A stretch of 64,000 nucleotides of DNA, taken from Alloascoidea hylecoeti (lineage: Eukaryota). The stretch covers positions 310,001 to 374,000 of the forward strand of contig BCKZ01000014.1 of NCBI GenBank assembly GCA_001600815.1, in the 5' to 3' direction. Position numbers and translations under genes: made by a program. Each line of letters begins with the position of its first letter. Positions within the stretch are counted from its first letter, which is position 1. The notes under the pieces are model-generated. The model worked only from the letters and a program-made list of their open reading frames with translations, did not search any database and was not told the origin of the DNA. Shown here piece after piece: positions 1-30,115 of the stretch.

Positions 1-451
1 AAGAATTTTAATATGATATACTACTTCAAAATTTTATTTGAAGAACATATTTATACGAAACACAAATATAGGAAAGGAATGAATGACTTAGCAGGAATTC
101 AATCACAAACAACTGGTAAACCCATCAGGCTCTATGTATCTACCAGGGTAGAAATTACTTATTTACCTACAAACAACTGAAATGAATATTTTAAATTTCT
201 TCTAAATTTTATATTTACCTTTCTTTCCTTATATTTACAGTTATTAAAAGTATTTATCTTTTTTTCTAGAGATCTCTTTTTTTTTTTCGTTGTTGTTATA
301 ATTGGTATGCATTTGGATATGTTTTGATTCTTGTTATTAGCTAGGAATGTTCGTTTTATTATGTTAGAATGTAACTAATCGTTACTTCTTTTTTCTTATT
401 ATATTACATGGTTAAATTAAAGTAGCTAAATTGTATAGCCGTTAATCATAT

Positions 452-1432
452 TTATATAAGATTAATCACAATATCATCATCAAATTTGACATTGTATATT
501 TTAACATTTTCAGTAATAATGTTGTTAATATTTACAAGTCTTCAAATTTGATTTTTGGGGATAACTTCGATCACAAATTTCCACTCCTTCACCGTTAACA
601 TTATGGCATAAGAAGCATGTCCGTCTATTTCATCTTTTAAACAAACTGCAGTCTGATTACATTTGTCCATATGCTTGATTGTGGAGGAGTTTTTAAAATT
701 TGGGTCCTTACTATAATGACGCTTGTAGCCTGGATTTTGGCCAACATTGATTGGTACAAACGGCCTTTATCCTAAACTTTTTAACATACCCTTAGAGTAA
801 TTATCTTCCTGTACTTTAGCAAAAAAAAAGTAATTCTTTTATAATTTCATTTTGTATCGAAACATTCCAGTCAACCATTTCCATGGTGGTTTTGGAGTCG
901 GTAATATCATTAGTATTCATTTCATTTTCAATCACAGGGTCCAATAATGTAGTTCCATAACCATCTTCGGAATCTCTGCAACTTATAAATGACCAGCATG
1001 TGAAAAATCGAGTCTGAATTTTTTCATTACAACATCATTAACACAACTGAATGATTTTATTAATCATACACGTTTAATCTATTTTCGTGGTATCGTAATA
1101 TCTGTTATTCATCGATGAATAGTCCCATATATTGAAAGCTCATGGTCTGCAATCGAAATTACAAACTTATCAAAACCCTCAAGAGGTTTTCTTTTCTCAT
1201 CATTCCATTCATCATCATCAGTTGCTGGATTTTGAACGCGAAATTCACGATATATTTTATAAATACATTTATAAACATTAATAAACCCTTTAGTAAAAAC
1301 TTCTTGTTTTCCTTCGATCAATTTATAATTTGTGTCAATATTAAGTTTTAGTTTCCCATCAATCACTTCATAATAGTTTCTTGATACTGTATAGAACTTT
1401 TCGTAGTTGGATTTAGTTATATGTTTGGGCAT
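452..1432 (-). pseudogene. Type-A orphan family copy A1 (disrupted)
   Basis: ATG at 1432; MPKHITKSNYEKFYTVSRNYYE...SIADHELSIYGTIHR, then in-frame TGA (1109-1111), further TAG/TGA stops and frameshifts. Homology to A2/A4 continues to a C-terminal KSNLKT...NVKFDDDIVINLI* ending at 452. Confidence 0.85.
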
Positions 1433-1784
1433 GGTGTTCAAAAAATTATAATGCTATAGAAGTAAAGAAATAAAATGGGCGATAGGAATAATAGGTTTCA
1501 AATATATAGGCTTGTAAAGGAAGAATCAATAAATATAGTTTCAGTATGGACCGTTTTAATATTAATACTTGCATGAGACTAGTTTACAGATATGTAATAT
1601 CCACTTTAAGCCATTATATGACTCAGCTACATAATTCTAAATAAAAGCACTATACTTTTAAAGAATACACTTTATGTCTGAACACTGCACATACCTATTT
1701 TGTATACATATCAATGGGTTCGATGCCCTTGAAATTGACAGTCGTACCTGCATTTCCCCAACTTTAAAAATATGAATTAATAAC

Positions 1785-2484
1785 AATTATGGTACTACTG
1801 ACAAGTATAAGTTGTTCAATGACTTGTCGAAATCCACTGAGAAAATCAAAACAAAATGTGTGAATTTTTATAACATTACAGTCTCGATTGAAGACCATGA
1901 GCTTTCAGACTCTGGAATTATTCATCGATTATATCAAAATATCATACTACCGATTCGAGTGGTGGAAGAGCGACTCTACATCAATGGTGATGATGGAAAA
2001 GATAGAATTAAAAAACTTACTTATTGCCCTTCGGGATATTGTAATGGAAGAGTTTCAACTAGAGTATTTTGATGTGACAGATAATTCTTTGATGAGCTTC
2101 AGAAGTTCAAATAATGGGTGCATTATTATTCCCTCCACTTCATCAGTTAAAGACATGTGTGTTCAATGGTTTTAGAGAGACATATGTCGATTGCTTTGCT
2201 ATAGTAATTGGGATGGTTTTAAGAAATATATGGCTTTCCAAGAGTTAGATAAATTTGTTTCTACCCAGGAAAAGGATTACACCACAGCTAAACTAAAAAT
2301 GATGAAGGAAAAACCATCCAGGACAATAATTTTGCTCTCATTTCAAATGTTAAGAACATTTTTGACATAAATCCACTTCTCAGAAAAAGAAAAATAGTAT
2401 AAAAAAAAGAAGCTTACGTGAATATATACATTCAAACACCGATTTGAAAAACATAAAGAGCGTCGGATTTAATGAACAAGCTAG
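1785..2484 (+). pseudogene. Type-B orphan family copy B1 (5'-deleted, frameshifted)
   Basis: NYGTTDKYKLFNDL...SIEDHELSDSGIIHR, then shifted frames (LLIALRDIVMEEFQLEYFD...MSFRSSNNG; STQEKDYTTAK; SNTDLKNIKSVGF). The conserved promoter block joins almost directly to mid-gene sequence, implying a deletion of roughly 400 bp. Confidence 0.85.
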
Positions 2485-2505
2485 TATCTTTTATTTTCAA
2501 TTACT

Positions 2506-2540
<35 letters not shown>
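2506..2540. repeat. (TA)n microsatellite
   Basis: Near-perfect TA dinucleotide run. Confidence 0.9.
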
Positions 2541-3029
2541 CTGGTATAGCTCTAGCTATGTATATGTATATTATATTCAAATTGTATCTGGAATGAATTA
2601 AATGGAATGAATTAATTCCTGAAAAGAATAATAGAAGTAAATATTTATATATATTTTTCTACTCAAATATATATATTTCAATAAGAAATTTTAAAACAAA
2701 TTTAAAGTAATAAGTATATCAATTATTCATATTCACTTTCCATTACCGGTTTATCATTATTAATGTGATAGACATCGTCATGCATCTCCGAGTTAATAAA
2801 CAGGTTCCTGCAGCTGCAGCTAGCTTAACCTCCAACACAAAAGTTAAAAATAATGCAATCGACAAATGGAGAAATCCCCAATTTATAGAAACTAAAAAAC
2901 TTCAGTGCCTTCGATTCATACAATGCAAATAATAAATAGGGAAATAACTGGGTTATATAAAAGTTCGTTCCCACAATATTTTTTCTCCTTCAACCTCTTC
3001 ATTATACACATAAACTACAAACTACCAAA

Positions 3030-4706
3030 ATGTCTTCTAAAGCACCATCCTCTAATTGTTCTGATTCGAGAAATATTGAACAGGAGACCTTTGAGGAAGT
3101 CGATTTGGATCAAGATTCAAACCCTATTGTCTCTTCATTTTCGACCACCTCTGGTCATCACAAAAAAGAATTGAAAATCAACGAAGAAACTGTTTATAAN
3201 GGTTTNNCNAAAANNGACNTAGANTCTTTATTATTTTGTTCTAATAATGAAAAGGAATCAAAAAAATCAATAAGATATTCCAAATATTTCATTAATCTTT
3301 TTTTATGTGTTATGTTATCTTTTGGAGGATTTATTATTTTCTGGGATTTCGGTACNATCGGTGGACTATTCTATATGAAAGAGTTTAAATTTTCTCACCA
3401 AAATATGGGTGGAATAATTGCTATTTTCGCTGTTGGGGCCGCTGTTGGTTCTGCCGGAGTTTCAAGACTCAGTGACTCCATGGGAAGAAAGTTGTGTATT
3501 TTATTGGGTGTAGCAATTTATGATATTGGAATGTTGGTTCAAATTCTTTTAACTCCTGATTATGAAATGGATTATTCAGGTATTATGTATGGAAGATTTC
3601 TGACTGGAGTTGGTGCTGGAACTTTGACTATTGTTTGTCGAGAATTGATAGCTGAAAATTCATTTCCATCTATTTGTCAATTATCGCTTAATCTTTTCCA
3701 TATTATAAGTTCCTTTGGCATGTTCAGTGGAGCTCTGTTNATTAAACTTACAGAAAATATCAAAATTGATATTGGTTATTATAGTCAATGGAAATTCATA
3801 ACACTTCTTTCTCTTGTCTGGTCTACTATTGTTATAATTGGGGTTTTATTTTCATTTGAGTCTCCAGTATATTTAATAACAATTGATAAGAAATATAAAG
3901 CTAGATTGAACCTTGGAAAAGCAATGGGTTTAGATATTCATGATTTAACAGTCCAGTGTCAAATATTAGAAATATCTAAACAAGATGAAGATAAAAATGT
4001 ATTATCTGTTCCTCTTTCCCTTAAAGGATTAAGAAAATTATCAATGATAGTGTTCTCAGACAAAAAGGTGACTTATAAATTAATAGCTTGTATTGGTATT
4101 CAATTCTTCGAGCAACTAACAGGTATTCATTTTCTTTTACATTATTTCCCTGAGATTATCAAAAATATTACTATTAGTAATAGTCATATTAATAATGATC
4201 CATTTATTTTGATGATGATTATTACAGCAGTTTATCTCTTTGGAATTATTATTGGATTACTTACTATTAAAATGAAAAGAAAATTAATTTTAATTTTTGG
4301 TTCCACAACTATGTTTTTATGTCTGCTTTCATCCTCGGTATTAGGACTCGGTTTTTTAAATGCAAAAAATCACATATTAATCGGTGATGCAATTTTCGGG
4401 CTTATATGTTCTTATGTGTTTGCATATTCTGCTTTCTGGGGAACTACCTCGAGTACTATTTGTGAGGAGACATTGGTTAACTTTTCGATATTAAACAAAA
4501 CATTAAATTCATTTTCATATTCAACAAGTTGGTTCACAGCAGCTTTTGTTACTTATTTTTCACCTTTTTTGATTGAAGTTATTGGGGTTTATTATTATAA
4601 TATGATTATTTGTCTTGGACTAATATTTTCTGTTTTATTTGTTTTCTTTCTTGTTCCTGAATCGTCTACAAAATCAAAGAGCTTGGATATTGATATCGAA
4701 AAGTAA
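3030..4706 (+). CDS. Divergent MFS sugar-porter (HXT-like) transporter
   Basis: 558 aa, ~12 hydrophobic segments, sugar-porter motifs GGFIIFWDFG, SDSMGRK, GRFLTGVGAG, FESP, QFFEQLTG, VPES; contains a few N bases. Confidence 0.85.
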   Translation: MSSKAPSSNCSDSRNIEQETFEEVDLDQDSNPIVSSFSTTSGHHKKELKINEETVYXGXXKXDXXSLLFCSNNEKESKKSIRYSKYFINLFLCVMLSFGGFIIFWDFGXIGGLFYMKEFKFSHQNMGGIIAIFAVGAAVGSAGVSRLSDSMGRKLCILLGVAIYDIGMLVQILLTPDYEMDYSGIMYGRFLTGVGAGTLTIVCRELIAENSFPSICQLSLNLFHIISSFGMFSGALXIKLTENIKIDIGYYSQWKFITLLSLVWSTIVIIGVLFSFESPVYLITIDKKYKARLNLGKAMGLDIHDLTVQCQILEISKQDEDKNVLSVPLSLKGLRKLSMIVFSDKKVTYKLIACIGIQFFEQLTGIHFLLHYFPEIIKNITISNSHINNDPFILMMIITAVYLFGIIIGLLTIKMKRKLILIFGSTTMFLCLLSSSVLGLGFLNAKNHILIGDAIFGLICSYVFAYSAFWGTTSSTICEETLVNFSILNKTLNSFSYSTSWFTAAFVTYFSPFLIEVIGVYYYNMIICLGLIFSVLFVFFLVPESSTKSKSLDIDIEK

Positions 4707-5667
4707 ACATTGTATTAGTTATAATCTTAATTAATTGTGACATTTTAAATACAACATATCATATAGAGCTAATATAAAAAAAGTATTTGAAATTTATAAC
4801 TAAAATATCTGTAGCGACAAGTAATCATATACATTTTCTTTTATAATTGTGAATATATCGTATAAGTTATATAACTAATTATCTACTAGCTAATCTAAAA
4901 ACTATTACATGTCAGTTCGATACTGTTCAAATCATAGTTATTATTATACAATTATAAATCCTCCACAGAATTAGGACATATGATTATAACTGGTGGTCTG
5001 TAAAGGTCAGAAACTTCAAAGCCTTAAACACAATTTCACACATTTTTAGGGTGTATTGATTTTTTTTTCATTCAATGCTTCATCTAATTCTGGTGAATAG
5101 TTTAATAAACGAATGAGTACTTTCCAATAGGATTTTTCTAAAATTTTAATCAAATTATCAAGAATTCTATATCCAATGATAATATACATATACATGTACA
5201 CTGATTTATTTATATCAAGAGGGATTTTACCATCATTTCTTTCAACATATTCGTTAAAACATTTTTTATATAACAATGCAACAGCCATATTCATACGATC
5301 TCTTATATTCCGTAAAACTATTGATATAGTTCTGATCTTCCAATACTACTTGAAACATTGTCATTTGAGGAAATCATTTGTGTTTACTTATCTTGCTTCG
5401 ATGCCAGGAGTTAACCGTAAAAAAATCAGTGATTTCCACCCCGCGTGGTACTTTCGAGTTATTACTGCTTATCATTGTTCGTGTGGTGTCATGGAAAATA
5501 GAAGATCCAGTAAAATAAATGATTGAAGAAGTAAGATAAATTTTCAGCCTACCTCCTGGTCTGGTGGTAAGTTGTAACTAGTTGAATATAGGCACAATAT
5601 GAACCTTCCTATCAATTTCCTCCTTACATTAAATTAATCATTGTTCTTATCATCTATAATCAATATT

Positions 5668-6244
5668 ATGGGAAGTTACAACTCTAAACTCGCCAATGAC
5701 AAAGGATATGATCCACCACCTTACGATTGGCCATTTCCCGCCCCATCTTCCAATATTAAGTCGCCATCAACTTCAGCTTCAGTTGAAGAAGTTGAAGACA
5801 TTGAAGCAGTTTTTAGTATCAGAGCAGAATTATTGGTTAAAAATCCAAGAGATTCCGGAAAATGGTCTGAGCCAAGAATGTGTATCATAAAATTCATCAA
5901 AAATATAAATGATGAAACATGTTCGTTCTCTTATCGCACTTGATATACACAATTCCAAGGTTTTATTAAATCATTTTATAGCACCAGAATATCATGTTTT
6001 AACTCTCACTTCAGGTTTTTTTAAATTACCGGAGTATTCAAATTTTGATTATAATCAGGGTAGTTATCAAACTTATACGCTTACTAGAAACTCTGACTTG
6101 AAAAGATTGAACAATTTATTGGCATTGGGGGTTTGTTTAAATTTTAGATCTGAATGGAATGCTGATAAATTCAGAAAAGAATTCATACAACAACAAGATA
6201 TAAATAAGAAGATTGAGAGTGATAAAAGTTTTATTGAATATTGA
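5668..6244 (+). pseudogene. Divergent Ran-binding domain (Yrb1/RanBP1-like) paralog with one frameshift
   Basis: Two overlapping ORFs join near 5915-5920 into ...EAVFSIRAELL...KW...KFIKN.../VRSLIALD...KVLLNHFIAPEY...FRSEWNADKFRKEFIQQQDINKK, collinear with Yrb1 (VRAKLF...EW...KFLKN...NHIIAPEY...[23 protein letters not shown]). Confidence 0.75.
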
Positions 6245-6505
6245 AGGTCATGATTAAAAATATTTATTTCTGGATCCTGATAGATGATTTATATCAATGT
6301 GATTAATTTGCTACATGTATAAGTATAAAGATAATTAATAGATGGATAACAAAATTTTGCTGGATAATTAAAATGCTAATAATATACTAAAAATAGTGGA
6401 GTTCAGTATCAGAATAGAGTTTATATGGATTTAAAATAAATGTCTGATCCAAAACTTCCGACTTCAAGAATTGGAAGTCCTTGAATCAGAATATAATGGT
6501 AATAC

Positions 6506-6590
6506 AGTTAAAGCTCTAAATGCCTGTTTCTCCCAGTTACGCCAAAAAGCCAATTGACTTCTTGTGAACTGTTCTAAGTGTGATACCAGA
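6506..6590 (-). mobile_element. Degenerate copy of the ~91-bp mini solo LTR
   Basis: Reverse complement aligns along its length with 13724-13814 (tgcctgtttctcccagttacgccaaaaagccaattgac...gtgaactgttctaag); termini decayed. Confidence 0.75.
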
Positions 6591-6716
6591 AATTAATTAT
6601 AAAGAAAAATAGGGGGAACCTTCTTAGACATTTTCATAGTTGTCTCTTATTAAAATTTTATCATTTTTATTACAATTACCAAATTAAGATATTTAAATTG
6701 TAGCCTTTGACTATAT

Positions 6717-7775
6717 TTATATGAGAAGTATATAAACATGATCATCAATTTTGACACTGAATCTGGAATTTCTGGTATTTTGATCAACATTCGATGGGGT
6801 AGAACTGGAAGACTTTAAATTTGATTTTTTGGGAGAACAACGACCAGAAATACTTACTCCTTCACCATTATTAACATTGATCATTGGGATCACATTCTGT
6901 GAAGTTTCATCAAATTCATTGACAATTTTATTTCGAATTTCAACAGAGGGTTTGATATTCGAATATATATTCCTATCTACTTCATTTTTTAAACGAACTG
7001 CAGTACGACGGCATTCATACAATTTTTTTAATGTATGGAAATCTCGGTAGTGTGGATCCTTACTATAATGATACTTATAATCTGGATGTTGGCCTTTCGA
7101 CTTCATTTCTTCTTGTGTATTAGAAAAATCAAGTAATTCTCCTATAACTTGAGTTTGCATCAGAAAATCCCACTTATAAGCACTATTAGCATCGTAATTG
7201 GTAAGGGTCGAACCCGTTGTAGCAGCTTCAATCATATTAATATCATCATCATCATCATCATCACCTACAGTGTCCAATAATGTAGTTACGTAACCGGCTC
7301 CTAATCCTCTACAACTTAGTAAAATACCAGGTTGTGCATCTTTAAGTGCAAAACTCCACATTACAGCCTGTTTCATATGATTGAGTAATTCTGGTATTTT
7401 ATTACCTATATCAGTTGAAATATTTTTTCGTGGTACTGTAATATTTGTTATTAGACGATGAATAGTACCATAGATTGAAAGCTCATGGTCTGCGATAGAT
7501 ATTACGAACACAAAATCATTCTTAAAATTTTTTATTTTCTTTTTCATGAAATGATAAATTTCCGGATTATCGACGCGAAATCGTTTACACAAATAATCGA
7601 CACATTTTGCAGTATTAGTAAATTCCCCTGTAAATACTTCTTGTATTCCATCAATCAACTCATATTCTGTGTCGAAATCAAGTTCTGATTCCTGATCAAT
7701 CACTTCATAATAGTTTATTGATATGGTATAAAACTTGCTGTAATTGGATATAGTTATATGATTATAATTAAGCAT
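6717..7775 (-). CDS. Type-A orphan family protein A2 (352 aa, intact)
   Basis: Open ATG-TAA frame with all family motifs; strongly similar to A4; no introns. Confidence 0.85.
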   Translation of the reverse strand: MLNYNHITISNYSKFYTISINYYEVIDQESELDFDTEYELIDGIQEVFTGEFTNTAKCVDYLCKRFRVDNPEIYHFMKKKIKNFKNDFVFVISIADHELSIYGTIHRLITNITVPRKNISTDIGNKIPELLNHMKQAVMWSFALKDAQPGILLSCRGLGAGYVTTLLDTVGDDDDDDDINMIEAATTGSTLTNYDANSAYKWDFLMQTQVIGELLDFSNTQEEMKSKGQHPDYKYHYSKDPHYRDFHTLKKLYECRRTAVRLKNEVDRNIYSNIKPSVEIRNKIVNEFDETSQNVIPMINVNNGEGVSISGRCSPKKSNLKSSSSTPSNVDQNTRNSRFSVKIDDHVYILLI

Positions 7776-8305
7776 GGTGTTAAAAAAATTGTAATAGTAG
7801 AAAGTTAAAAAATAAAGTCAAAAATGAGGAAAATAATAGAAAAGAAATATTTTAGTAAAATATTAGGATTAGGCTGGATTAGTGAATGAATTAATGTATT
7901 TTCTGTACCAACCGTATTAATCCAATGCATCACTAGTAAGAATCATCTAGAAATGGAGTCTGTAAATATGTAATATGCCACTTTAAACTATTCTATGACT
8001 TCGCTACATAATTTAAAGTCAAAATACTTACACCTTTAAGGAATAAAATTTATGTCTGAACACTGTAATATCCTATTTTGTATACCATCAATCTAATATG
8101 TGATGGCCTACTGATGAAACCTGCATTTACGGAACTTTAAAAAATTGTATTCATGAAGAATAGGAAGTATAATGTATATATTTATAGTCAACAATTAATA
8201 TATAAATAGAAGCAAGTGCAGAAATCATCTTTTCTTCATCCTCACACTTTTTAAACAAATTTGATATCTTTTTCCACCTAATTAACTAATTATAATTATA
8301 ATTAA
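7776..8305. promoter_or_regulatory. Conserved bidirectional promoter between A and B genes (also 1433-1780, 11390-11848, 15416-15972)
   Basis: CCTATTTTGTATA (1694, 8072, 11589, 15711) and ACCTGCATTT...AACTTTAAAAA (1746, 8119, 11668, 15793) recur in all four spacers; AATAGGAAGTATAA plus a TATA-like tract recur in spacers 2-4. Confidence 0.65.
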
Positions 8306-9235
8306 TTGTTTAATAATACTGATAACGATATGGATTATATTCTAAAAGACGCCAAAAAGTTTTACACTGTTTCACTCTGTTATTATGAATTGGAAAACGT
8401 CAATGAAGCTGAATCAGATGCTATGGAAATATTTAAATTGAAAAATACTTTTGTCGGTTCGTTCAATGATGTTGAGGAGCTCACTACGGACTTCTATACC
8501 GAATTTTGTGATATGTCACCGATAACCGAATACAGTATTNAAGATCTTAATGTTAATTATGGTACTACTGACAAGTCTGTCTTGTACAATGACTTGGTGA
8601 AAGCTACTNAGGAANTCGAAGTAAATTGTGNGAATTTTCATAACGTTACAATCTCGATTGCAGATCATGAACTTTCAGATTCTGGATTTATTCATCGATT
8701 ATATCCAAATATTGTATTATCACGTCGAATGGTGGAAGAGCGTTTCTCAATTAATGGTGGTAATGGTAATTATGGAACATTACTTATTTGCCTTCGGGCA
8801 CTTGTAATGGAAAAGTTTCAACTAAAATATTTCGATCCGGCAAATGATCATTTGATGAGTTGCAGAGGCTCGGAAAAAGGTTACATTTTGATGGCCTCGA
8901 CTTCATCAGTTAACGACAAAAATGATGAAGAGACAGGTGGTGATAGCTATACTAACTGGACTGCTTATAAACAATCCAAGATTTTTGAAGAATTAGAAAA
9001 TTATGTTTCTACACAGGAAGAGGATTACACCAGAATTAAACAAAAAATGGTGAAGAAAAAACCATGGAGGACTACAATTGGCCAGCGTTCAGAAGTTAAG
9101 AAAATTTTTGACATGAACCCCTATTGCAGAAATATAAGTATATCATTCGAAGCAGATGAAAGCCATAATCTTGTCCATTTGGAAGATGATGGTTCGGATA
9201 GTTATATAGTGGCTATGGTAAGTTTAGATAACTAA
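8306..9235 (+). CDS. Type-B orphan family protein B2 (first ATG lost, C-terminal tail truncated)
   Basis: Paralog of B3. The codon equivalent to the B3 ATG is TTG (next ATG at 8330). Stop at 9235 precedes the KSNLK/KCVRF tail present in B3/B4/B5. Four N bases. Confidence 0.7.
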   Translation: MFNNTDNDMDYILKDAKKFYTVSLCYYELENVNEAESDAMEIFKLKNTFVGSFNDVEELTTDFYTEFCDMSPITEYSIXDLNVNYGTTDKSVLYNDLVKATXEXEVNCXNFHNVTISIADHELSDSGFIHRLYPNIVLSRRMVEERFSINGGNGNYGTLLICLRALVMEKFQLKYFDPANDHLMSCRGSEKGYILMASTSSVNDKNDEETGGDSYTNWTAYKQSKIFEELENYVSTQEEDYTRIKQKMVKKKPWRTTIGQRSEVKKIFDMNPYCRNISISFEADESHNLVHLEDDGSDSYIVAMVSLDN

Positions 9236-9449
9236 ATTCATAAGACCTACAAATTCAATGATGTAATATCTGAATTATAGGTGAAGCTCGCCAGAACTTT
9301 CCTTATAAAAATAGCTAATTCCGCTTGAAGTTGCTATAAGTTTAATGGCTACTCCGCCAGAAATAGCTATACACTAAATAGTTATATAAAAAATTAGCTA
9401 GTTAGAAACAATATAAAAGGAGAACAAAATCTACTTTATATGCTTGTGT

Positions 9450-10550
9450 TAAATGAAGTGTGTGTAGGTTCCCTTATGGTCAGACCAAAAAATAAATATT
9501 ACTTTCTCTTTTACCATTACTCTCCACGTCAATCCGGTTCAAAGTAGAAGACAATCGATGTTAGTAATTTTCATTTCTTCACGCACAGCTGAACCCTCAA
9601 TTATTCCGTGTCGATATTTTAAAGGGGTTCTTCTTTCACTGATCTTCCCTATCATTCGAATGAAGGGTTTAATAGAAAGAAAAAGCAAAGCTTTTTGTGT
9701 TTTTAGGAATATGATGCATTGGAACACATTCGGACAATGCAAACGTGACTGTGATATTAGTATATCACTACTATTTGTGATTGTTGAATAGTATATCCAG
9801 ACGCGAGTTAATTCAACTTTAGTTGGTTCCTAAACACATATCAATAGCAATAAACGAAAATTACGTGAAAATCAAATGAGTTAAAACCTCTTTTGATAGG
9901 AATTATCGGTAGAAACGCACCTCAAACCCGCCTCAAGTTCTCGATTCATACCGAAATATTCTCTAAAGACAAACCTGGTTCAAAGCAGAAATGGTTATGA
10001 GATCAATTTAAATATGAGCTTGCAACATTCGCAATGCGGAAGACCCTGGTCGTATTCCAGTTATTTGCCTGAAATTATTAGAAGTCGCCTCAAAGTGCTT
10101 AAGTGGCATAATGGTAATCATTGAAATCACTCCATGAATTACAGAAGATCCGTAAAAGAGAAATGGTTGAAGAAATAACACAGGCCCATCAATTCAGTTT
10201 CGGCAAGAGTTGCTCTAATAGAGCGCCTTAAGAACAGATTCTCCATTTGGATATCATAAATTTACATCTTTTTAATTTAATTTAGAAGTTTTAAAATTTT
10301 TTGAAAAGGGTGATTAGATCTTTGATTTTCCGCTGATCAAAAAACCATATAATAATAATACTGATGATATTGTTATGAGCGATATGATTTCATCTTAAGA
10401 ATCTCATATAAAAATGGAAGAGATTATAGAGTTAATTCAGTATTATTGCAATATGACAGTGATACTTTAGATGATCTGGCAGAAGAAGAAGAAAGTGATA
10501 ATAGTAGTTTTACAGTTAGGTATTTAAAGATCAAATTTGAGAATTCTCCT
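9450..10550 (+). pseudogene. Decayed third gene ('C') and its upstream block, downstream of B2
   Basis: gtgtgtaggttcc... and tcactactatt...gattgtt blocks align with 13130-13520 (the first block also with 17467-17640); broken reading frames. Confidence 0.45.
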
Positions 10551-11389
10551 AGCTTGATCAATATTTGACGGTTTAGAGACAGAAGATTTCAAATTTTGAA
10601 TTTTTACCACAAATACTCACTCCTTCATCATTCGTAAAAATAATCATTGGTGTCACATTTTGTGTAGTTTTATCAATTATACTAGCAATTTTACTTTGAA
10701 TTTCAGCAGAAAGTTTGATATTGACATAAGATCTATGTCCGTCTATTTCATCTTTTAAACAAACTGTAGTCTGATTGCATTTGTCCATATGCTTGATTGT
10801 GGAGTAGTCACTAAGATTATAATCACTATTAGATTTTATTAAATCGGCATTGGACTTATCAACCATTTCCATGGTGGTTTTGGAGTCGGTAATATCATTA
10901 GTATTCATTTCATTTTCAATCACGGGGTCCAATAATGTAGTTCCATAACCATCTTCGGAATCTCTGCAACTTATAAACGACCAGCATGTGCAAAATCGAG
11001 TCTGAATTTTTTCATTACAACATCGTTAACACAACTGAATGATTTTATTAATCATACACGTTTAATCTATTTTCGTGGTATCGTAATATCTGTTATTCAT
11101 CGATGAATAGTCCCATATATTGAAAGCTCATGGTCTGCAATCGAAATTACAAACTTATCAAAACCCTCAAGAGGTTTTCTTTTCTCATCATTCCATTCAT
11201 CATCATCAGTTGCTGGATTTTGAACTCAAATTCATGATATATTCTATAAATACATTTATAAGCATTAATACCCTAGTAAAAACTTCTTGTATTCCTTCGA
11301 TCAAGTTTTAATTTTCCTATCAATCACTTATAATAGTTTGTTGATATATTAAACTTTTCATAATTGGATTTAGTTATATGTCTAGGCAT
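10551..11389 (-). pseudogene. Type-A copy A3 (disrupted; near-identical to A1)
   Basis: 10860-11300 is almost identical to 870-1330, including the same premature stops (HR*, PRK*, RV*); additional indels near the 5' end. Confidence 0.85.
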
Positions 11390-11848
11390 GGTGTTAAAAA
11401 AATCATAATGTTATAGAGGTAAAGAAATAAAATGGGGGATAGGAATAATAATAAAAAGAATTTTAGGGAAAAATTGAGCTTAAATATATAATTTAATAGA
11501 GGAGCTTCTAATGAAAGAATCAAAATATTTTTAAGTCAAAATACTTACACCTTTAAGGAATACAATTTATGTCTGAATACTGTAATATCCTATTTTGTAT
11601 ATAAATCAATAATTATACCACTAATCTCATCTGCATGTAATGAATTTGCGATGCCTATTAAATTCGTACCTGCATTTACGGAACTTTAAAAAAATGTATT
11701 CATGAGGAATAGGAAGTATAACAATATATATTTATGGCAGTCAAAAATTCATAAATAAATAAAGACATCTGCCAAAATAATTTCTTCCTCATCCTCCTCA
11801 CACTTGTTAAAAAAATTTCTACTATTTTTCTTTTTAATTAACAAAATA

Positions 11849-12925
11849 ATGTTTAATAATACTGATAACGATATGGATTATATTTTAAAGGACACCAAAA
11901 AGTTTTACACTGTTTCACTCTGTTATTATGAATTAGATAACATCAATGAAGCTGATTCAGGTACTAAAGAGATATTCAAATTGAAAAATATTTTTGTTGG
12001 TTCCTTCAATGATGTCGAAGAGCGTACTCTAGACTTTTATTCAGAGTTTTGTGATATGTCAATGATAGCCAAACACAGTAATCAATATCTTATTGACAAA
12101 TACCGTACTTCTGATAAGTATCTGTTGTACAATAATTTGGTAAAAGCTACTGAGCAAATCAAAGTAAAATGTGTGAATTTTCATAACATTACAATCTCAA
12201 TTGCAGATCATGAGCTCTCAGACTTTGGTCTTATTCATCGATCACACCCAAATATTGTATTATCGCTTCGAATGGTAGAAGACCGCCTCTTAGACAATGC
12301 TAATGATGGTGATGATGAAATAGAAAATCTACTTATTGACCTTCGAGATGTTGTAATGGAAAAGTTTCAACTAAAGTATTTTGATCCGGGATGTAATCAT
12401 TTGATGAGTTGTAGAGGTTCAGAAAAAGGTTATATTATAATTCCATCCACTTCATCAGTTAATAACAATTTTGATAAGATGATTGATAATTACAGTGATT
12501 GGACTCCTTCCAGGCAATCCATGATTTTACAAGAATTGGATGAATTTGTATCTACACAAGAAAGGGAATTTACAGCAGCTAAAAAAAAAATGTTGGAGGA
12601 TAAACCACTCAGGACTACCATGGGCCAACTTTCAAATGTTAAGAAATTTTTTGATTTGAATCCATATTTGAGAAACAAAAAGATAGCTGACGAAGTTGAA
12701 GAAAAACGTACTCTTGTCGTTTTGGAGGATGATAGTACAGATTTTGGCTTTGATAATTTCATGGATGATTCTAAATTCTTAAGACCTGGTAAATACAATG
12801 ATGATGTAGTATCAGATAATTCAGATGTACCAAGGAAATCCAACTTGAAGACTTCTACATATTCAAACACCGATTGGGAAATCATAAAGTGTGTCAGATT
12901 TATGAAATTAATTCCTGAATTATAA
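11849..12925 (+). CDS. Type-B orphan family protein B3 (358 aa, intact)
   Basis: ATG at 11849 (MFNNTDND...), full open frame ending ...RKSNLKTSTYSNTDWEIIKCVRFMKLIPEL*. Confidence 0.85.
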   Translation: MFNNTDNDMDYILKDTKKFYTVSLCYYELDNINEADSGTKEIFKLKNIFVGSFNDVEERTLDFYSEFCDMSMIAKHSNQYLIDKYRTSDKYLLYNNLVKATEQIKVKCVNFHNITISIADHELSDFGLIHRSHPNIVLSLRMVEDRLLDNANDGDDEIENLLIDLRDVVMEKFQLKYFDPGCNHLMSCRGSEKGYIIIPSTSSVNNNFDKMIDNYSDWTPSRQSMILQELDEFVSTQEREFTAAKKKMLEDKPLRTTMGQLSNVKKFFDLNPYLRNKKIADEVEEKRTLVVLEDDSTDFGFDNFMDDSKFLRPGKYNDDVVSDNSDVPRKSNLKTSTYSNTDWEIIKCVRFMKLIPEL

Positions 12926-13129
12926 TTTCTGTTATTTATATCCAAACGGTATCGAGAATGGAATAATTCATAAATAGCATACATATAATAATATAATAGT
13001 AATACTCTATATGTTTTGCTACTCAAATATACGTATATTCTTAATAAAAAATTTAAAATAAATTTAAATTAATGGTTATATTAGTCATTGATGTACTTTC
13101 CATTCGTATCATTTTGTACTTGTTCTTTA

Positions 13130-13520
13130 ATACTGAGTGTATGTAGGTTCCTTCAAGGCCGTAATGAAAAATAAAATAAATTCGACCCGTAAAATTTACC
13201 TTCTATTTAATCATCGATATCTAACTCAGTGTTCACCACCATGCCAAAACAATCTAAGTGGGAAAAGGACAATCGCAGTTTGAGATTACATTAAGTCGTT
13301 TTTTATCCCCAGCTTAGCTCTAAAGTATTACAAGATTGTAGAGGGCTTCGATGTTCCTTGGTTAATCTTTTTTAAGGAAGAAGTTATCCTGCAAATCAAA
13401 ACGTATAATAGAATAAAATGTTTTCAGGAAGATGATTTACGGAGCATACTCGGATAACGGTTAAGTGTGACTGCCTTTTTGATAGATCACTACTATTCAT
13501 GATTGTTTGGAATTCTGACC
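13130..13520 (+). pseudogene. Decayed 'C' gene copy downstream of B3
   Basis: caccaccATG at 13241 (MPKQSKWEKDN), then a shifted frame DYIKSFFIPSLALKYYKIVEGFDVPWLIFFKEEVILQIKTYNRIKCFQEDDLRSILG*; homologous to 9540-9790 and 17560-17640. Confidence 0.45.
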
Positions 13521-13723
13521 TCATTGTTGTCCTTTCTCAGATTTCAAGATATCATTTCATCCTCCTTCTAAGATATTGTTTTCATTATCTGCCATGTTCT
13601 TCAAAATATTTTCATCGCCATTCAAATTGTTTAATATTGGAACACTGATTTCTTCATGCTCATTTACTAATCCATCATCTGAATTATCAATATCTCTATC
13701 AATATCTTTACTATTAAATAATT

Positions 13724-13814
13724 TGTTGGATATATTACGCTCTTAGAACAGTTCACTAAAGAGTTGATTGGCTTTTTGGCGCAACTGGGAGAACAGGCAC
13801 TTTGAACTTTAACA
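13724..13814 (+). mobile_element. 91-bp solo LTR with 5-bp target-site duplication
   Basis: Starts TGTTGG, ends TTAACA, flanked by TAATT on both sides (13719-13723, 13815-13819); both ends match LTR ends of the element at 15974-16339. Confidence 0.85.
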
Positions 13815-14362
13815 TAATTGGAATGTAGTTTTCAAGAAATTACCTCTAAATCTTCAATAGAAATTCCAATTCTTTCATATAAATATTCTATATTTTGATA
13901 ATTATATAAGTAATACAAAATAAAAAACGAATAAAATATTGAATTCGAATAAAGCTTGTTCAACTAATTTCTTAAACACCTTTTGCAATTTCTTTCGAAC
14001 TGAACTTATTATATACTGAAACTCAGTATTTAAAGCATTTATACCTAGTATGATATTGAACCCCAATGTCTCTTCATATTCATCACATAATTCGATTTAA
14101 ATGGTGTCGTTATGATCTTAACTTTTTCATCTAACTTTTTTTTCACTTAATTTTTTTTTACTTTAAATTTTCTTTTATTAGGCTTATACCATCTATTAGG
14201 CGTATTTGTCATTCTTTTATTTTGAATATAGTTGGTATACATATATTCTGATTATTGTTATTAGCTGGTATCCGTCTTATTATCTTAAAATGTAACTAGT
14301 ATTTTTCTTATCATATCACAAATTCATATTAAAGTAGCTAAATTTATAGGTCTTGATCATAT

Positions 14363-15415
14363 TTAATTATATATATCTACATTATCATCAAATTTGACAT
14401 TGAATACTACATTTTTACTAGCTTGATCAATATTTGAGTGTGTAAAAGTAGAAGTCTTCAAATTTGATTTTTTGGGATAAATGGGACCACAAATACCAAC
14501 TTCTTCATCATTGTTAATATTAATCGTTGGAGTCACATTCCGTCCAGTTACATCAAGTTCATTGATAATTTTGCTTCGAATTTTAACAACAATTTTGATG
14601 TTGGAATATATATTCCTGTCTAGTTCATCTTTTAAAAAAACCGCACTCTGATGGCATTCGTCCAAATATTTTATTGTTTCGAAGTCTCTGTAGTTTGGAT
14701 CCTGACTATAATGATACTGAAGATCTGGAGTTTGACCCTTCGAACTTTTATCTTCCTGTGTATCAACGTAATCAAGTAATTCTTTTATGACTTCATTTTG
14801 TTTTGAAAAATCCCATCTATAATCACCATTAACCTTATTAAAATCGTGATTGATAAGGGTGGTTGTGGCGGCTTCAATGCTTTTAATTTCATCATCATTT
14901 AGCCATATGGTGTTCAACAACAAAGTCCTGTAACCAGCTTCGGAACCTCTGAAACTTAATAAATAACCAGGTTGGAGAACCTTGAGTCCAAATTTCCCCA
15001 TTACAACATCCGTAACAAAATTGAGTAATTCTGGTATTTCAATACCTTTACCAATTGAAATATTTTTTCGTGGTACTGTAATATCGGTTATTAATCGATG
15101 AATGATCCCATAGATTGAAAGTTCATGGTCTGCAATTGATATTATGAGCATTTTATTTTCCAAGGAAGATTTTATTTTCTTATCATCGAGATCATCAGTT
15201 GCCGGATTATGGACGCGAAATTGTTGGCATAACCTATCAACACATTTTTCAGGATAAACAAAACCCCCTATAAAAACTTCTTGTATTCCATCAATCAACT
15301 CATATTCTGTTTCGAGATCAAGTTCTGATTCCTGATCAATAGCTTCATAATAACTTATTGATACAGTATAGAACTTTTTGTAATCGGATTTAGTTATATG
15401 ATTATAATTAGACAT
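14363..15415 (-). CDS. Type-A orphan family protein A4 (350 aa, intact)
   Basis: Open ATG-TAA frame; ends PKKSNLKTSTF...KNVVFNVKFDDNVDIYN*. Confidence 0.85.
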   Translation of the reverse strand: MSNYNHITKSDYKKFYTVSISYYEAIDQESELDLETEYELIDGIQEVFIGGFVYPEKCVDRLCQQFRVHNPATDDLDDKKIKSSLENKMLIISIADHELSIYGIIHRLITDITVPRKNISIGKGIEIPELLNFVTDVVMGKFGLKVLQPGYLLSFRGSEAGYRTLLLNTIWLNDDEIKSIEAATTTLINHDFNKVNGDYRWDFSKQNEVIKELLDYVDTQEDKSSKGQTPDLQYHYSQDPNYRDFETIKYLDECHQSAVFLKDELDRNIYSNIKIVVKIRSKIINELDVTGRNVTPTININNDEEVGICGPIYPKKSNLKTSTFTHSNIDQASKNVVFNVKFDDNVDIYN

Positions 15416-15973
15416 GGTGTTAAAAGAATCCTATAAAGTGAAAAAATAAAGTGGGAGATGAGGATAAAAGAAAAGAAAAATTTTAGGGGAATACTAGGTT
15501 TGAATATATAATCGCGTGGACTGGATTGTAATGGAAGAATTGATATATTTTTTTAAAATACACACAGCGACACTATATGATAAGTTAGTAAGAAATGGGC
15601 TGCAGATATGTACCATCCACTTTTAGCCCTTCTATCACTAGACTATATATTTTTAAGTCAAAAAACTTATACCATTAAGAAATAAACTTCATGGATGAGC
15701 ACTGTACTATCCTATTTTGTATATAAATCAATAATTATACCACCATTAATCTCATCTGCATGTAATGGATTCGCGATGCCTTTTAAATTCGTACCTGCAT
15801 TTACGGAACTTTAAAAAAATGTATTCATGAGGAATAGGAAGTATAACAATATATATTTATGGCAATCAACGATTCATATAAGAATAAAGACATCTACCAA
15901 AATAATCTCTTCCTTATCCTCCTCACACTTAATCAAAAAATTTCTTCTCTTTTTCTGTTTAATTAACTGACCA

Positions 15974-16339
15974 TGTTGGATATATATTACACTCTTAGAA
16001 CAGTTCACTAAAGAGTCGATTGGCTTTTTGGTGAACTGTTCTAAGAGTGTAATATATATCCAACACACCCCCCAACCTTAGGCAGGTCACTTTACTAATC
16101 GCCATATCTGCTCACCCCCGTGATCTTGCGGGTTTCGGACTTCTTGCAGACTGACTCGGACATTTTACTTTCGGGCCATTTATGCGTTACCCTACTAAGC
16201 CTCAACTAGACTGATGTAAACTACCGTCCTACGGCGGACTCGAGCCTGATGCCTCTCGTGGCGGCGCCGCTACCATGTTAAAGTTCAAAGTGCCTGTTCT
16301 CTCTCTCGTTTTCTATCTCGATCACTATACCTATCTCGA
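15974..16339 (-). mobile_element. Miniature non-autonomous copia-type LTR element (TRIM-like)
   Basis: On -: 5'LTR end ...GAACAGGCACTTTGAACTTTAACA (ends 16276), PBS TGGTAGCGGCGCCG (16275-16262, tRNA-iMet type), ~185 bp non-coding GC-rich core, PPT GGTTGGGGGGTG (16077-16066), then 3'LTR TGTTGG...CCAACA (16065-15974). The 5'LTR runs into the assembly gap. Confidence 0.8.
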
Positions 16340-16964
16340 NNNNNNNNNNNNNNNNNNNNNNNNNNNNNNNNNNNNNNNNNNNNNNNNNNNNNNNNNNNNN
16401 NNNNNNNNNNNNNNNNNNNNNNNNNNNNNNNNNNNNNNNNNNNNNNNNNNNNNNNNNNNNNNNNNNNNNNNNNNNNNNNNNNNNNNNNNNNNNNNNNNNN
16501 NNNNNNNNNNNNNNNNNNNNNNNNNNNNNNNNNNNNNNNNNNNNNNNNNNNNNNNNNNNNNNNNNNNNNNNNNNNNNNNNNNNNNNNNNNNNNNNNNNNN
16601 NNNNNNNNNNNNNNNNNNNNNNNNNNNNNNNNNNNNNNNNNNNNNNNNNNNNNNNNNNNNNNNNNNNNNNNNNNNNNNNNNNNNNNNNNNNNNNNNNNNN
16701 NNNNNNNNNNNNNNNNNNNNNNNNNNNNNNNNNNNNNNNNNNNNNNNNNNNNNNNNNNNNNNNNNNNNNNNNNNNNNNNNNNNNNNNNNNNNNNNNNNNN
16801 NNNNNNNNNNNNNNNNNNNNNNNNNNNNNNNNNNNNNNNNNNNNNNNNNNNNNNNNNNNNNNNNNNNNNNNNNNNNNNNNNNNNNNNNNNNNNNNNNNNN
16901 NNNNNNNNNNNNNNNNNNNNNNNNNNNNNNNNNNNNNNNNNNNNNNNNNNNNNNNNNNNNNNNN
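16340..16964. other. Assembly gap (625 N)
   Basis: Run of N. Confidence 1.
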
Positions 16965-17273
16965 TCGATTGCAGATCATGAACTTTCAGATTCTGGATTT
17001 ATTCATCGATTATATCCAAATATTGTATTATCACGTCGAATGGTGGAAGAGCGTTTCTCGATCAATGGTGATAATGGTAGCTAAAAACAAAATGATGAAG
17101 AAAAAACCTCAACGGACAACGTTTGGCCAGCATTCAGAAGATGATAGTACAGATAGTGGTAAGATCTGCTAGATATAGTACCAAAGAAATCAAATTTGAA
17201 AACTTCTACACATTCCAATACCAATTGGGAAATTATAAAATGTGTCAGATTCACAGATTTAATTCATAAATAA
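16965..17273 (+). pseudogene. Type-B copy B4 (start codon at 15973 hit by LTR element; internal deletions)
   Basis: SIADHELSDSGFIHRLYPNIVLSRRMVEERFSING is identical to B2; followed by deletions/frameshifts and tail PKKSNLKTSTHSNTNWEIIKCVRFTDLIHK*. Confidence 0.8.
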
Positions 17274-18528
17274 TATTTTCCGTTATTTATATTCAGACTG
17301 TATCTAAAAAGAATTAAATCTTGAAAAGCATAAAAATATTAATGCTATATATGCTTTTCTACTCAAATATAAAGTAATAGTTATATTAGTTATTTCGATG
17401 TAGTCTTTATTAGTATCATTTTAAACTTGTTTTATAAGGCCCTTGATGCTGTTTTATAAATATGGTAAATGAAGTGTGTGTGGGTTCCTTCAAGGCCAGA
17501 ATAAAAAATAAAAAGTGCGACCCGTAAAATATACTTTCTTTTTAACCATCCGCTCTTTACCAGAGTCACCACCATTTTAAAAAGATCTGAATTGGAAATA
17601 CACAATGGACATATATCAGATTACTTTGAGTCAATTTTTACTAAAAATAATAGGACAGATGATTAACGGAATTCATTTGATTTAAAAAAATTTGCAAAAC
17701 TATTCCTGTCATACGTTCATACTCACATTCATTGAAATCTTATTAATATTTTGATGATAGTCTCATGATAAAGATGTGGCTTCTCAGAGTAATACCAGTC
17801 TACCAGTTGAAGAGCGATTAAACGGAAGTTAACATAATACTAATACAACAATAATCCAAAACCTTTCACCCCTACTACTACCACCAACTACTACTATACC
17901 AAAGAATTTAACAAGGACTTCAAATACTGCATCTAAACCAATACTCATGATAATAGATATACGCACATTTTATATGATTAATTATCAAAACCTCCAGAAT
18001 TAAATATAACTCAAAAGGTTTAAAACTTCAGCCACACACACAATATGAAATTTCAATTGACACCACAGAACATAATGCATCAGATTTCCCATTTTTATCA
18101 ATACTAAATAAAACAAATTTAGTATTTCGGATTCAACTAATACTAATGCAGTTCAAGAACATAAAGAAGAAAGTCTTTCGAGTACTGAAAAAAAAAAGAA
18201 TCAACAATTATCACTACGAATACACCCACAACTACTACATTAATTCCGTCATCATCTAATTTTTCAAATCGGATTAGGTTTAATAAAACATTTCAAGATA
18301 TGAAAATGGGTTTTGGTTTCGTTGATGTTATTTAAGCAACGAGTATTTATAAAGTTAGGAAATCATTTGTTTCTATAAATTTAGAAGAACTACGTATACA
18401 ATGATGAAAAATCAATCACAAACTAAACATTTATTATAATTTAATATATACTGTACAAACAAATTATCTAAAAACTCAAAGAAGACTCCAATTATAATCA
18501 CAATTTTACTATTAATTTCCGTTTATCA

Positions 18529-19239
18529 CTATAAAATAGAACCTGTATATTTTTCCGCCATTTCCCAGTTCATGTCATCAAAGTTATTGGCTAGGAACCC
18601 TTGGATGAAACCGTTCGGTAATTTGAAATGTGAATTTAAAAAATCACACATTATTTTGGTTTCGTCATCGTTTAATCCATTTAAATAAATGGTTTTCAAT
18701 ACCCTCTCGATTTCGTTCGCCTCTATAATTAAATCATCATTGTTTGATGATTCATATACATTTGCGGTTGGAACTGCAGCTGCTACTGCAAGACCCAATG
18801 CGTTTACTGGTGAGACTAATGGAGTTGGTAAATTAGTTGGTTCAATTGGTGCTGCCCAGGCATGTGTCTTTTTAGCTGGGATAGAAGTAGCCGAAGCAAG
18901 TGTCTCTTTGGTTGGAGTAGGATCAGTCGAAACAGGTGTTGCCAGTTTTGCCTTTAATATACATTGTAATCTAATGTGGAGGCCATTGTCGTGTTCTACC
19001 ATTAAAGCCACCTTTTTGGATTTGTCCAAGTTTTTAATTCTAGTGTATAGATCAGACACCATCTTTCTGATCATTTTTTGTTGAGGAGCAGTCAATGTTA
19101 GAGCCTGAAGCTCGTTGCCAACGCTGAAATTTTTGACGGCAATCGAATTATCCGCACCTGGTGTACCTTGAACACCATCGATCATTGCAACTAACATAAT
19201 TGCACAGGCTATAGAGATTATAGGGGTTGAAGTTCTCAT
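18529..19239 (-). CDS. Hypothetical secreted protein
   Basis: 236 aa; N-terminal hydrophobic signal-like segment, Pro/Thr/Ala-rich middle; TATA-like tract at ~19345-19355. Confidence 0.65.
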   Translation of the reverse strand: MRTSTPIISIACAIMLVAMIDGVQGTPGADNSIAVKNFSVGNELQALTLTAPQQKMIRKMVSDLYTRIKNLDKSKKVALMVEHDNGLHIRLQCILKAKLATPVSTDPTPTKETLASATSIPAKKTHAWAAPIEPTNLPTPLVSPVNALGLAVAAAVPTANVYESSNNDDLIIEANEIERVLKTIYLNGLNDDETKIMCDFLNSHFKLPNGFIQGFLANNFDDMNWEMAEKYTGSIL

Positions 19240-30066: not shown

Positions 30067-30115
30067 TTTTGATTAAATTTTATGATGTTGTTTAATGAAG
30101 AAAGAAGAAAAAATT

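Follow-up and report, generated by a model that had tools for sequence, protein, structure and literature searches.

What is the cluster of divergently oriented, mutually related genes that occupies the first part of a 64,000-nucleotide (nt) stretch of the Alloascoidea hylecoeti genome (assembly GCA_001600815.1, contig BCKZ01000014.1, positions 310,001 to 374,000 of the forward strand; hereafter, the window): a two-gene system held together by a joint function, or the imprint of a duplication history? An earlier reading made from the nucleotide sequence without database searches (hereafter, the sequence-only reading) recognized here a tandem array of gene pairs, each consisting of an A gene on the minus strand and a B gene on the plus strand, and considered a co-regulated module that amplifies as a unit, such as a heterodimer, a poison-antidote pair or an allorecognition pair. 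We find that A and B are two old paralogue classes of a previously undescribed, lineage-restricted protein family; the family itself, its organization into units, its decay, its mosaic structure and the constraint acting on it are matters of direct observation. Taking all the evidence together, we lean, with a little more than even confidence, to the view that this is a lineage-restricted family in birth-and-death evolution, subject to weak constraint, the products of which are possibly proteins that bind protein phosphatase 1 (PP1).

The GC content of the window is 30% throughout. Comparison of the window with A2, A4, B2 and B3 by tblastn and with its own positions 1-20000 by blastn recovers four head-to-head units, A on the minus strand and B on the plus strand, at ~300-2480, 6680-9260, 10530-13300 and 14230-17640 (Table 1). 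Thus, the array of head-to-head paralogous pairs perceived in the sequence-only reading is real, the spacer sizes given there hold for units 2 to 4, that of unit 1 being shortened, and the long terminal repeat (LTR) remnants placed among the units are confirmed by contig depth and repeat analysis. Further observations of that reading stand as well: short candidate introns were found in nearby genes, as expected if the intronless A and B genes lie amid intron-bearing neighbours, and the frequent pseudogenization and rapid divergence that it pointed out are reflected in stops or frameshifts in 5 of the 9 window copies and agree with the identity values and the ratios of nonsynonymous to synonymous substitution rates (dN/dS) reported below.

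The condition of the individual copies is central to the interpretation of the array. By three-frame translation, three copies are complete (A2, A4 and B3), one is truncated (B2) and five are dead, with stops or frameshifts, such that none of the four units retains both genes complete; unit 2 comes nearest, but its B gene lacks the conserved tail discussed below. In unit 1, residues 6-302 of A4 match positions 1423..521 with 39% identity (tblastn, E 2e-50) across stops and frameshifts, and B1 aligns with B2 and B3 in three collinear pieces lying in different frames (tblastn, E 4e-51); the spacer of this unit is short because of a deletion that also took ~72 codons of B1. From B2, the last ~120 nt, which encode the tail, have been deleted: the blastn homology with unit 3 stops at 9263 (equivalent to 12803), and the KSNLK...VRF tail is absent from every frame of 9100-9500. 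Past the assembly gap in unit 4, B4 consists of 115 nt that are 97% identical to B2, followed by a stop and an internal deletion; the tail that remains, PKKSNLKTS...KCVRF, is out of frame. Finally, a fifth B-type copy, B5, is a solo remnant outside the array with no A partner nearby; both the tblastn and the blastn comparison detect it at ~43.7 kb; it contains a 102-aa open reading frame (ORF) at 43509-43817 that ends KKSNLKSSTYSNTDWKIKKSVRFVS, its tail KKSNLK...KKSVRF is perfectly kept, and it is closest to the database protein P0003 (see below), residues 197-372 of which match it, the longest piece (275-372) with 53% identity (tblastn, E 2e-22).

With respect to the relationship between the two classes, A4 and A2 share 61% identity (BLASTP, E 1e-134) and the B proteins 63%, and A4 and B3 are 28% identical (103 of 367 positions; BLASTP, E 3e-24), an expectation value that argues against a chance resemblance. 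The proposal that A and B are distant paralogues is thus supported, and all six motifs on which it drew are present in the four-sequence alignment. Likewise, the failure of the sequence-only reading to recognize a domain is matched by our searches, which detected no significant structural neighbour and no Pfam family for any of the six members scanned (A2, A4, B2 and B3 at E<=1; P0003 and P0007 at E<=0.01), and the profile and structure comparisons that it suggested yielded no confident match to a housekeeping or transposon family. As regards transposable elements in particular, no transposase, integrase or reverse-transcriptase domain was detected with Pfam, RNase H-like structural neighbours appear only at Z<=4.1, below the noise, and there are no terminal inverted repeats at the unit ends, the eight inverted pairs in 1-20000 corresponding to the A/B paralogy (the codons of SIADHELS) or to LTR fragments.

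The family is confined to very few sequences. A profile search of 1,835,955,588 representative proteins returned seven relatives at E<=0.001. Two of these, P0002 (which is A2) and P0006 (a read of the A1 pseudogene), are identical to sequence encoded in the window, and for P0008, a read of the B1 pseudogene, the identity is 98.6%; P0003, a 373-aa B-type protein, and P0004 and P0005, two fragments of another A-type copy, are not encoded in the window; and P0007 is a distant 323-aa relative from an NCBI record (E 6e-6). Some sequencing contigs link spacer-like pieces in arrangements absent from the window, and these, together with P0003-P0005, show that there are further copies elsewhere in the same or a closely related genome. 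In a word-indexed search of 5.8 billion protein clusters, A4 returned only itself and A2 (1,612 candidates), and P0007, searched at the same scale, returned only itself; the version of this search that used a six-sequence profile found three proteins and missed the known members B3, B2 and P0003. The ESM Atlas gave no usable match for A4, whole or as residues 8-170, PHROGs gave one row at E 0.06 for P0007 and none for the other four sequences, and of 206 pattern matches in JGI metagenome contigs none was confirmed by tblastn. Synaptonemal complex protein 3, obtained in a PDB sequence profile search at E 0.01, was dismissed as a compositional match of helical, charged sequence.

The history of the array can be read from the DNA. 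Homology between units is continuous in blastn comparisons, from ~140 bp past the A stop, through A, the spacer and B, to ~380 bp past the B stop, and the claim that the pair amplifies as a unit is accordingly upheld: the homology block spans both genes, the spacer and short flanks. The copies do not, however, share a single pattern of nearest relatives. At the DNA level, spacer 3 is closest to spacer 4 (90% over 321 nt), the B4 fragment to B2 (97%), A2 to A4 (73-76%) and B1 to B3 (73%), and for A1 and A3, which have stop codons in common, identity reaches 91% over 623 nt and 99% over a stretch of 300 nt; the same near-identity appears as a repeat family (D4) that pairs 871-1170 with 10859-11158 at 99%. 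The identity of the partners, B1 and B3, is by contrast no higher than 73%. Shared stops and near-identity in A1 and A3 thus mean that duplication or conversion acted on an A copy that was dead beforehand, and therefore the spread of a copy needs no function. Non-allelic gene conversion or unequal exchange has turned the array into a mosaic. Moreover, because a single ancestral pair gave rise to all four units, the head-to-head layout is to be counted once and not four times; it records a single historical event and is not repeated evidence for selection on pairing. We propose that an ancestral inverted duplication would have given rise to a divergent A/B pair around a spacer of ~0.5 kb, that a block of ~3 kb comprising A, the spacer, B and short flanks would then have been tandemly duplicated next to LTR remnants, and that later non-allelic gene conversion would have reshuffled the copies, the majority of which are decaying.

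Nonetheless, the surviving genes bear the mark of constraint. Estimated by the Nei-Gojobori method with 2000 bootstrap replicates, dN/dS is 0.62 for A2/A4 (95% interval 0.45-0.85; 5 of 2000 replicates reach 1) and 0.37 for B2/B3 (95% interval 0.26-0.53; 0 of 2000 reach 1). This comparison had been recommended in the sequence-only reading, and the values, below 1 in both classes, imply weak purifying selection. Furthermore, ORFs of ~350 codons would not be expected by chance in DNA of such composition. The GC content at third codon positions (GC3) of A2, A4 and B3 is 0.22-0.28 and reaches or exceeds the upper limit of the values in four housekeeping neighbours (0.06-0.21). Throughout, CTG codons are almost absent, at 0-2 per gene.

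The DNA between A and B is also conserved in part. The two genes of a pair lie head-to-head with a spacer of less than 1 kb, and all four spacers can be aligned. Among units 2-4, the identity is 0.84-0.94 in block I and 0.93-1.00 in block II, as against 0.34-0.72 in the spacer flanks outside the blocks when unit 2 is compared with units 3 and 4. AT-rich, TATA-like stretches are visible in the spacer alignment ~100 bp upstream of each start codon and, together with the conserved blocks, fit a shared upstream element serving both genes. The blocks thus suggest a shared promoter, and on the same grounds we regard co-expression of A and B as fairly probable; alternatively, gene conversion could keep the spacer blocks similar. 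Candidate sites for known yeast transcription factors, sought by eye in blocks I and II, were all unconvincing. The Ndt80-type middle sporulation element has the consensus CRCAAAW; it has one match in the three full spacers, which is not conserved between units, and across the window it occurs 45 times against 50.6 expected, without enrichment.

The proteins appear to be soluble, acidic and intracellular: the maximal 19-residue Kyte-Doolittle hydropathy is 0.35-1.11 in all seven family sequences, no membrane spans are predicted, and the isoelectric points of the window copies are 4.7-5.6. Structural modelling suggests, at moderate confidence, three parts, namely an N-terminal alpha/beta domain of ~150 residues, a poorly ordered middle and a conserved C-terminal linear motif. 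In the AlphaFold2 model of A4 residues 1-235, built from an alignment of 11 family sequences, the predicted local distance difference test score (pLDDT) is 64-88 in most 10-residue blocks of 11-150, with a dip to 52-54 at 71-90; the modelled order of elements is strand-strand-helix-strand-strand-helix, and the rest of the segment is not modelled. A whole-protein model from 4 sequences is unusable (pLDDT 38.5). The most conserved feature of the N-domain is a predicted beta-hairpin, S-I-(A/V)-(D/E)-H-E-x-S-x-x-G-x-I-H-(R/K). Residues K14, F15, T17, S19, Y22, F48, F66, I92, S93, I94, H97, E98, S100, G103, I105, H106, L131, F142, L213, Q220 and Q228 are invariant out to P0007 and concentrate on the first strand and the SI(A/V)(D/E)HE hairpin, the remainder diverging to 25% identity; this cluster could be a binding or catalytic site. 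The fold brought no relatives to light. Foldseek searches of the PDB with the N-domain gave a best E of 0.037 at a template modelling (TM) score of 0.11, with all TM<=0.19; VIA-align against 48,161 chains gave a best Z of 4.1 and none with Z>=5, the best Z of unmatched models being typically 7-8; and in BFVD the best fold match had E 0.0039 and TMq 0.21. A complex prediction for the A4 and B3 N-domains scored 0.00, but was run without alignments or controls and counts neither way.

The C-terminal tail offers the most specific hint at a molecular activity. Both classes end in KKSNLK(T/S)S, followed after 10-13 residues by a V-x-F element, and the pLDDT of the tail is below 50 in the whole-protein model. 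For the RVxF motif, PMC4794898 gives a short consensus, [RK]x0-1[VI]{P}[FW], and a stringent one, [KR][KR][ACHKMNQRSTV]V[CHKNQRST][FW]. Within the last 25 residues, the short consensus is present in B3 (KCVRF), in the B5 remnant and P0003 (KSVRF) and in A4 (KNVVF), and by eye the tail of the B4 remnant (KCVRF) fits it too; the stringent consensus is matched by KKSVRF of the B5 remnant and P0003 only, and by no intact window gene. As background, the short motif occurs in the last 25 residues of 0 of 12 non-family window ORFs of at least 200 aa, and the stringent motif 0 times in 6,159 residues. A literature search with the tail pentapeptides produced a Plasmodium PP1 interactome paper as the only relevant item, and no homology to known PP1 regulators was found in the Pfam scan.

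We hypothesize that the tail would be an RVxF-type docking site for the PP1 catalytic subunit (Glc7) and that the proteins would be PP1-binding adaptors, regulators or substrates, with the N-domain supplying the target or the activity (for an overview of Glc7 regulators, see PMC6506691). Of the molecular handles that can be considered, PP1 docking is the most likely, and we put it forward tentatively, as possible rather than probable. The parallel is with Rif1 and KNL1, which recruit PP1 by means of an RVxF motif and a second motif upstream of it, accompanied by phosphorylatable serines in the vicinity (PMC3989773 and PMC6406801). As in these proteins, a basic K-x-V-x-F lies in a Ser/Thr-rich segment of poor order, and 10-13 residues before it comes a second conserved basic motif; unlike in these proteins, that upstream motif is SNLK or SNMK and not [GS]IL[KR], and the motifs are at the extreme C-terminus. 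A further difference from PP1 interactors is that A2, B2 and P0007 do not carry a valid RVxF. Should the tail bind PP1, these proteins would be rapidly evolving phosphatase adaptors, which is unusual among PP1 regulators.

Several considerations weigh against the interpretation that we favour, a constrained family of possibly PP1-binding proteins. The SILK motif, which has the consensus [GS]IL[KR], occurs in 0 of 7 family sequences, SNLK or SNMK being present instead, and the short RVxF is missing from A2 (which has RNSRF), from the truncated B2 and from the distant P0007; moreover, this motif occurs by chance in ~25% of proteins (PMC4794898). The mean pLDDT of the N-domain model, at 58.4, is middling, and the description of the fold may be wrong. 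No contig spans two units, and we depend on one assembly for the succession of the units and for what lies in the 625-N gap. Furthermore, with the majority of copies dead, any function of the family may have been lost.

This last point can be extended to a family that is a relic without present function, in which the intact ORFs would be all that survives of a vanishing array and the layout a matter of inherited history only. We judge this unlikely. In its favour are the 5 of 9 copies that are dead and the 1 that is truncated, a high dN/dS in the A class (0.62) and GC3 values of 0.22-0.28 versus 0.06-0.21 in the neighbours, suggestive of poor codon adaptation; on the other hand, dN/dS is significantly below 1 in both classes, three ORFs of at least 350 codons survive in DNA of 30% GC, and the tail motif and the spacer blocks are conserved well beyond their flanks. 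That the array is an artefact, with alleles or dispersed copies joined falsely, is scarcely credible. The copies differ by 24-39% in DNA, far beyond allelic divergence, and are therefore not alleles; sequencing runs belonging to three studies (one possibly the source itself) yield contigs that cover 8719-15737 with 0-4 differences, and the unique contigs of each copy show 0 differences and single-copy depth (~60x, 8x and 10x); and unique inter-unit DNA ties the B2 flank to A3 (contig 9411-10764) and the B3 flank to 13591. What can be said for an artefact is that unit 4 contains the 625-N gap, that ambiguous bases are scattered in the region and that no contig crosses from one unit to another; the assembly is of draft quality precisely in the repeated parts. 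As for the activity of the N-domain, an enzyme in which H97, E98, S100, H106 and Y22 form an active site, for instance a phosphoesterase- or nuclease-like one, regulated or localized by the tail, strikes us as rather improbable. These polar residues are invariant in A, B, P0003 and P0007 despite divergence to 25% identity, and RNase H-like and 2H phosphoesterase folds are among the structural neighbours obtained at low scores, but all structural matches are below the noise (Z 4.1; Foldseek TM<=0.19) and, on inspection of the sequence, these residues do not conform to the H-x-T/S motif that 2H enzymes carry.

A further reading would be a two-component selfish or conflict module, either a poison-antidote driver or an allorecognition pair, in which one paralogue harms and the other neutralizes, perhaps through co-assembly of the homologous N-domains, such that the pair spreads as a unit. 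The tight linkage, divergent orientation and conserved spacer, the amplification of the entire unit and the restriction of the family to very few genomes speak for such a module, as do rapid divergence, abundant pseudogenes, LTR neighbours and gene conversion, which are also traits of the wtf drivers as portrayed in PMC6526906. Yet both genes are complete in none of the units, duplication or conversion has extended to an A copy that was dead beforehand, and the invariant residues and the KSNLK box are common to A and B, neither of which looks specialized as toxin or antidote; nor are there membrane spans or multiple exons as in wtf, a sign of an arms race at the whole-gene level (dN/dS <1) or a conserved Ndt80-type element in the spacers (45 window matches against 50.6 expected). 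We therefore hold this module to be improbable. A variant that operates through PP1, in which B, with its strong K-K/x-V-R-F tail, captures or misdirects Glc7 and A, with its weakened tail, antagonizes it by co-assembly, appears very improbable; if true, it would amount to a toxin-antidote or drive system built from paralogues of a new protein family in a budding-yeast-like fungus, and the turnover of the array and its dead copies would be the debris of past rounds of conflict. In general, the heterodimer, poison-antidote and allorecognition readings find no support beyond the genomic pattern, and as functional interpretations of the pair they are weakened by the absence of a complete pair and by the spread of dead copies.

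Pfam includes a WTF model, and none of the six members scanned matched it or any other family. The ORFs of A2, A4 and B3 run without interruption and can be aligned over their full length, in contrast to the 5-6 exons of wtf genes, which are single genes encoding predicted transmembrane proteins, with poison and antidote produced from alternate transcripts and the poison from an alternate start in intron 1 (PMC6526906). The same account describes wtf in Schizosaccharomyces pombe as a species-restricted multigene family with pseudogenes, mosaic gene conversion, LTR association and segmental duplication, all of which recur here, whereas the genes described here are two separate single-exon paralogues whose products have no membrane spans. 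The likeness to wtf is thus one of evolutionary pattern only, and every molecular feature examined, that is, homology, membrane spans, exons and gene number, differs.

Divergent co-regulated pairs are familiar in budding yeasts, for instance the subtelomeric SNZ/SNO genes and the histone genes, which are transcribed outward from a short shared spacer and in which the pair is repeated in the genome. The A/B units resemble these in having two genes directed outward from a short spacer, with the pair repeated, but there the partners are unrelated, have known joint functions and are deeply conserved, whereas here they are orphan paralogues and mostly dead. Yeasts also have lineage-specific tandem or subtelomere-like families that evolve by birth and death. 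With these the present family shares a sugar-transporter neighbour, LTR remnants, turnover of copies, gene conversion and relaxed constraint; it differs from the known ones in that the protein family is undescribed. The locus provides a clean example of a young, restricted family in birth-and-death evolution, with inverted duplication, block amplification, conversion that spreads dead copies, and decay. Moreover, the N-domain is without detectable relatives or a known fold, and determining its structure would bring in a new family. Were the pair to turn out to be a toxin-antidote or drive element, yeasts would gain a system of a new kind; we found no support for this beyond the genomic pattern.

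Table 1. Coordinates of the A/B units and associated features in the window
Feature	Position	Strand	Remarks
Unit 1	A1 521-1432 / B1 1776-2399	- / +	
Unit 2	A2 6717-7775 / B2 8330-9235	- / +	
Unit 3	A3 10527-11389 / B3 11849-12925	- / +	
Unit 4	A4 14363-15415 / B4 16965-17264	- / +	
A1 pseudogene	297-1432	-	coding remnant ~521-1432; DNA homology to other units from 297
Spacer 1	1433-1775		shortened; block I 1651-1715, block II 1746-1799; from repeat families D14/D15 and the spacer alignment
B1 pseudogene	1776-2399	+	~72 N-terminal codons missing; several frameshifts
A2	6717-7775	-	intact ORF, 352 aa
Spacer 2	7776-8329		554 bp; putative bidirectional promoter; block I 8029-8093, block II 8119-8172 (identity to units 3 and 4: 0.84-0.94 in block I, 0.93 in block II)
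B2	8330-9235	+	301-aa ORF; ambiguous bases at 8540, 8609, 8615, 8631
A3 pseudogene	10527-11389	-	four tblastn pieces in different frames; stop codons in common with A1
Spacer 3	11390-11848		~460 bp; block I 11546-11610, block II 11668-11721
B3	11849-12925	+	intact ORF, 358 aa; SNLK at residue 331, KCVRF at 347
High-copy LTR-type fragment	13515-14028		between units 3 and 4
A4	14363-15415	-	intact ORF, 350 aa; SNLK at residue 317, KNVVF at 334
Spacer 4	15416-15973		558 bp, up to the LTR end; block I 15668-15732, block II 15793-15846
LTR fragments	15974-16339		exactly at the expected B4 start; run into the N gap
Assembly gap	16340-16964		625 N; inside unit 4, cutting B4
B4 pseudogene	16965-17264	+	preceded by LTR fragments and the N gap
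B5 solo remnant	43364-43817	+	C-terminal half of a B-type gene; 26 kb from the array

The repeats interspersed with the units are of high copy number. In run X1, the summed word depth of the fragment between units 3 and 4 is 5,234-19,450, against ~60 in its flanks, and that of the LTR fragments at 15974-16339 is 3,071-12,024, very high depth being seen over 15828-16339 as a whole; blastn matches the former fragment to 15974-16038 at 91% and to 39136-39185 at 90%. The homology of spacer 4 to unit 3 ends at 15967 (equivalent to 11842), just before the LTR insertion, and at 15974-16065 two TGTTGG... ends face each other (inverted repeat I7). The TGTTGG...CCAACA ends of the window repeats are typical of yeast LTRs, and the high-copy fragments are likely to be the debris of solo LTRs; we saw no ORF of a retroelement anywhere in the window. 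Further fragments of the high-copy repeat lie at 6507-6582 and at 39136-39185, the latter ~500 bp from the sole tRNA gene of the window, tRNA-Asp (39684-39757).

In the vicinity of the array, a sugar-transporter gene (Pfam Sugar_tr, E 6e-52) is located between units 1 and 2, and to the right of the array follow genes for ECM11-like and ADA2-like proteins, UTP6, RAD24/Rad17, a thioredoxin-glutaredoxin, importin beta, a PAP2 phosphatase and 6-phosphofructo-2-kinase. Single ambiguous bases are clustered in the sugar-transporter gene (3200-3224, 3356 and 3740) and in B2 (8540-8631). The gene order in 22659-34121 is ECM11-like, ADA2-like, UTP6, RAD24-like and thioredoxin-glutaredoxin, and presumably resembles that of the adjacent genes ECM11/ADA2/UTP6 and RAD24/GRX4 of Saccharomyces cerevisiae, in which case the array would adjoin a conserved block and not sit in a purely variable region.

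Candidate introns, identified with relaxed signals, number four in the importin-beta gene (65-75 nt; 48888-49414) and one in the ADA2-like gene (84 nt; 24748-24831); they have GTATGT or GTAAGT donors and ACTAAC, ACTAAT, TCTAAT or ACTGAT branch-like sites, and the strict S. cerevisiae pairing GTATGT...TACTAAC is absent from the entire window. Right beside the array, at 18529-19239 on the minus strand, lies a 236-aa ORF with a hydrophobic, signal-like N-terminus and an Ala/Pro/Thr-rich middle, for which no Pfam family scored above threshold (HrcA_DNA-bdg at E 0.073 only). Overlapping ORFs of 91 and 111 aa at 5668-6244 on the plus strand, starting MGSYNS..., a possible N-myristoylation start, match no Pfam family and may be one gene with a frameshift or an unrecognized intron. 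Finally, at 46040-48268 on the plus strand, a 742-aa C2-domain protein contains a Ser/Asn-rich middle with an internal direct repeat of ~70 residues (...NHSNDNFYN.TN.ERISSRQNSPIRKSLPPS...).

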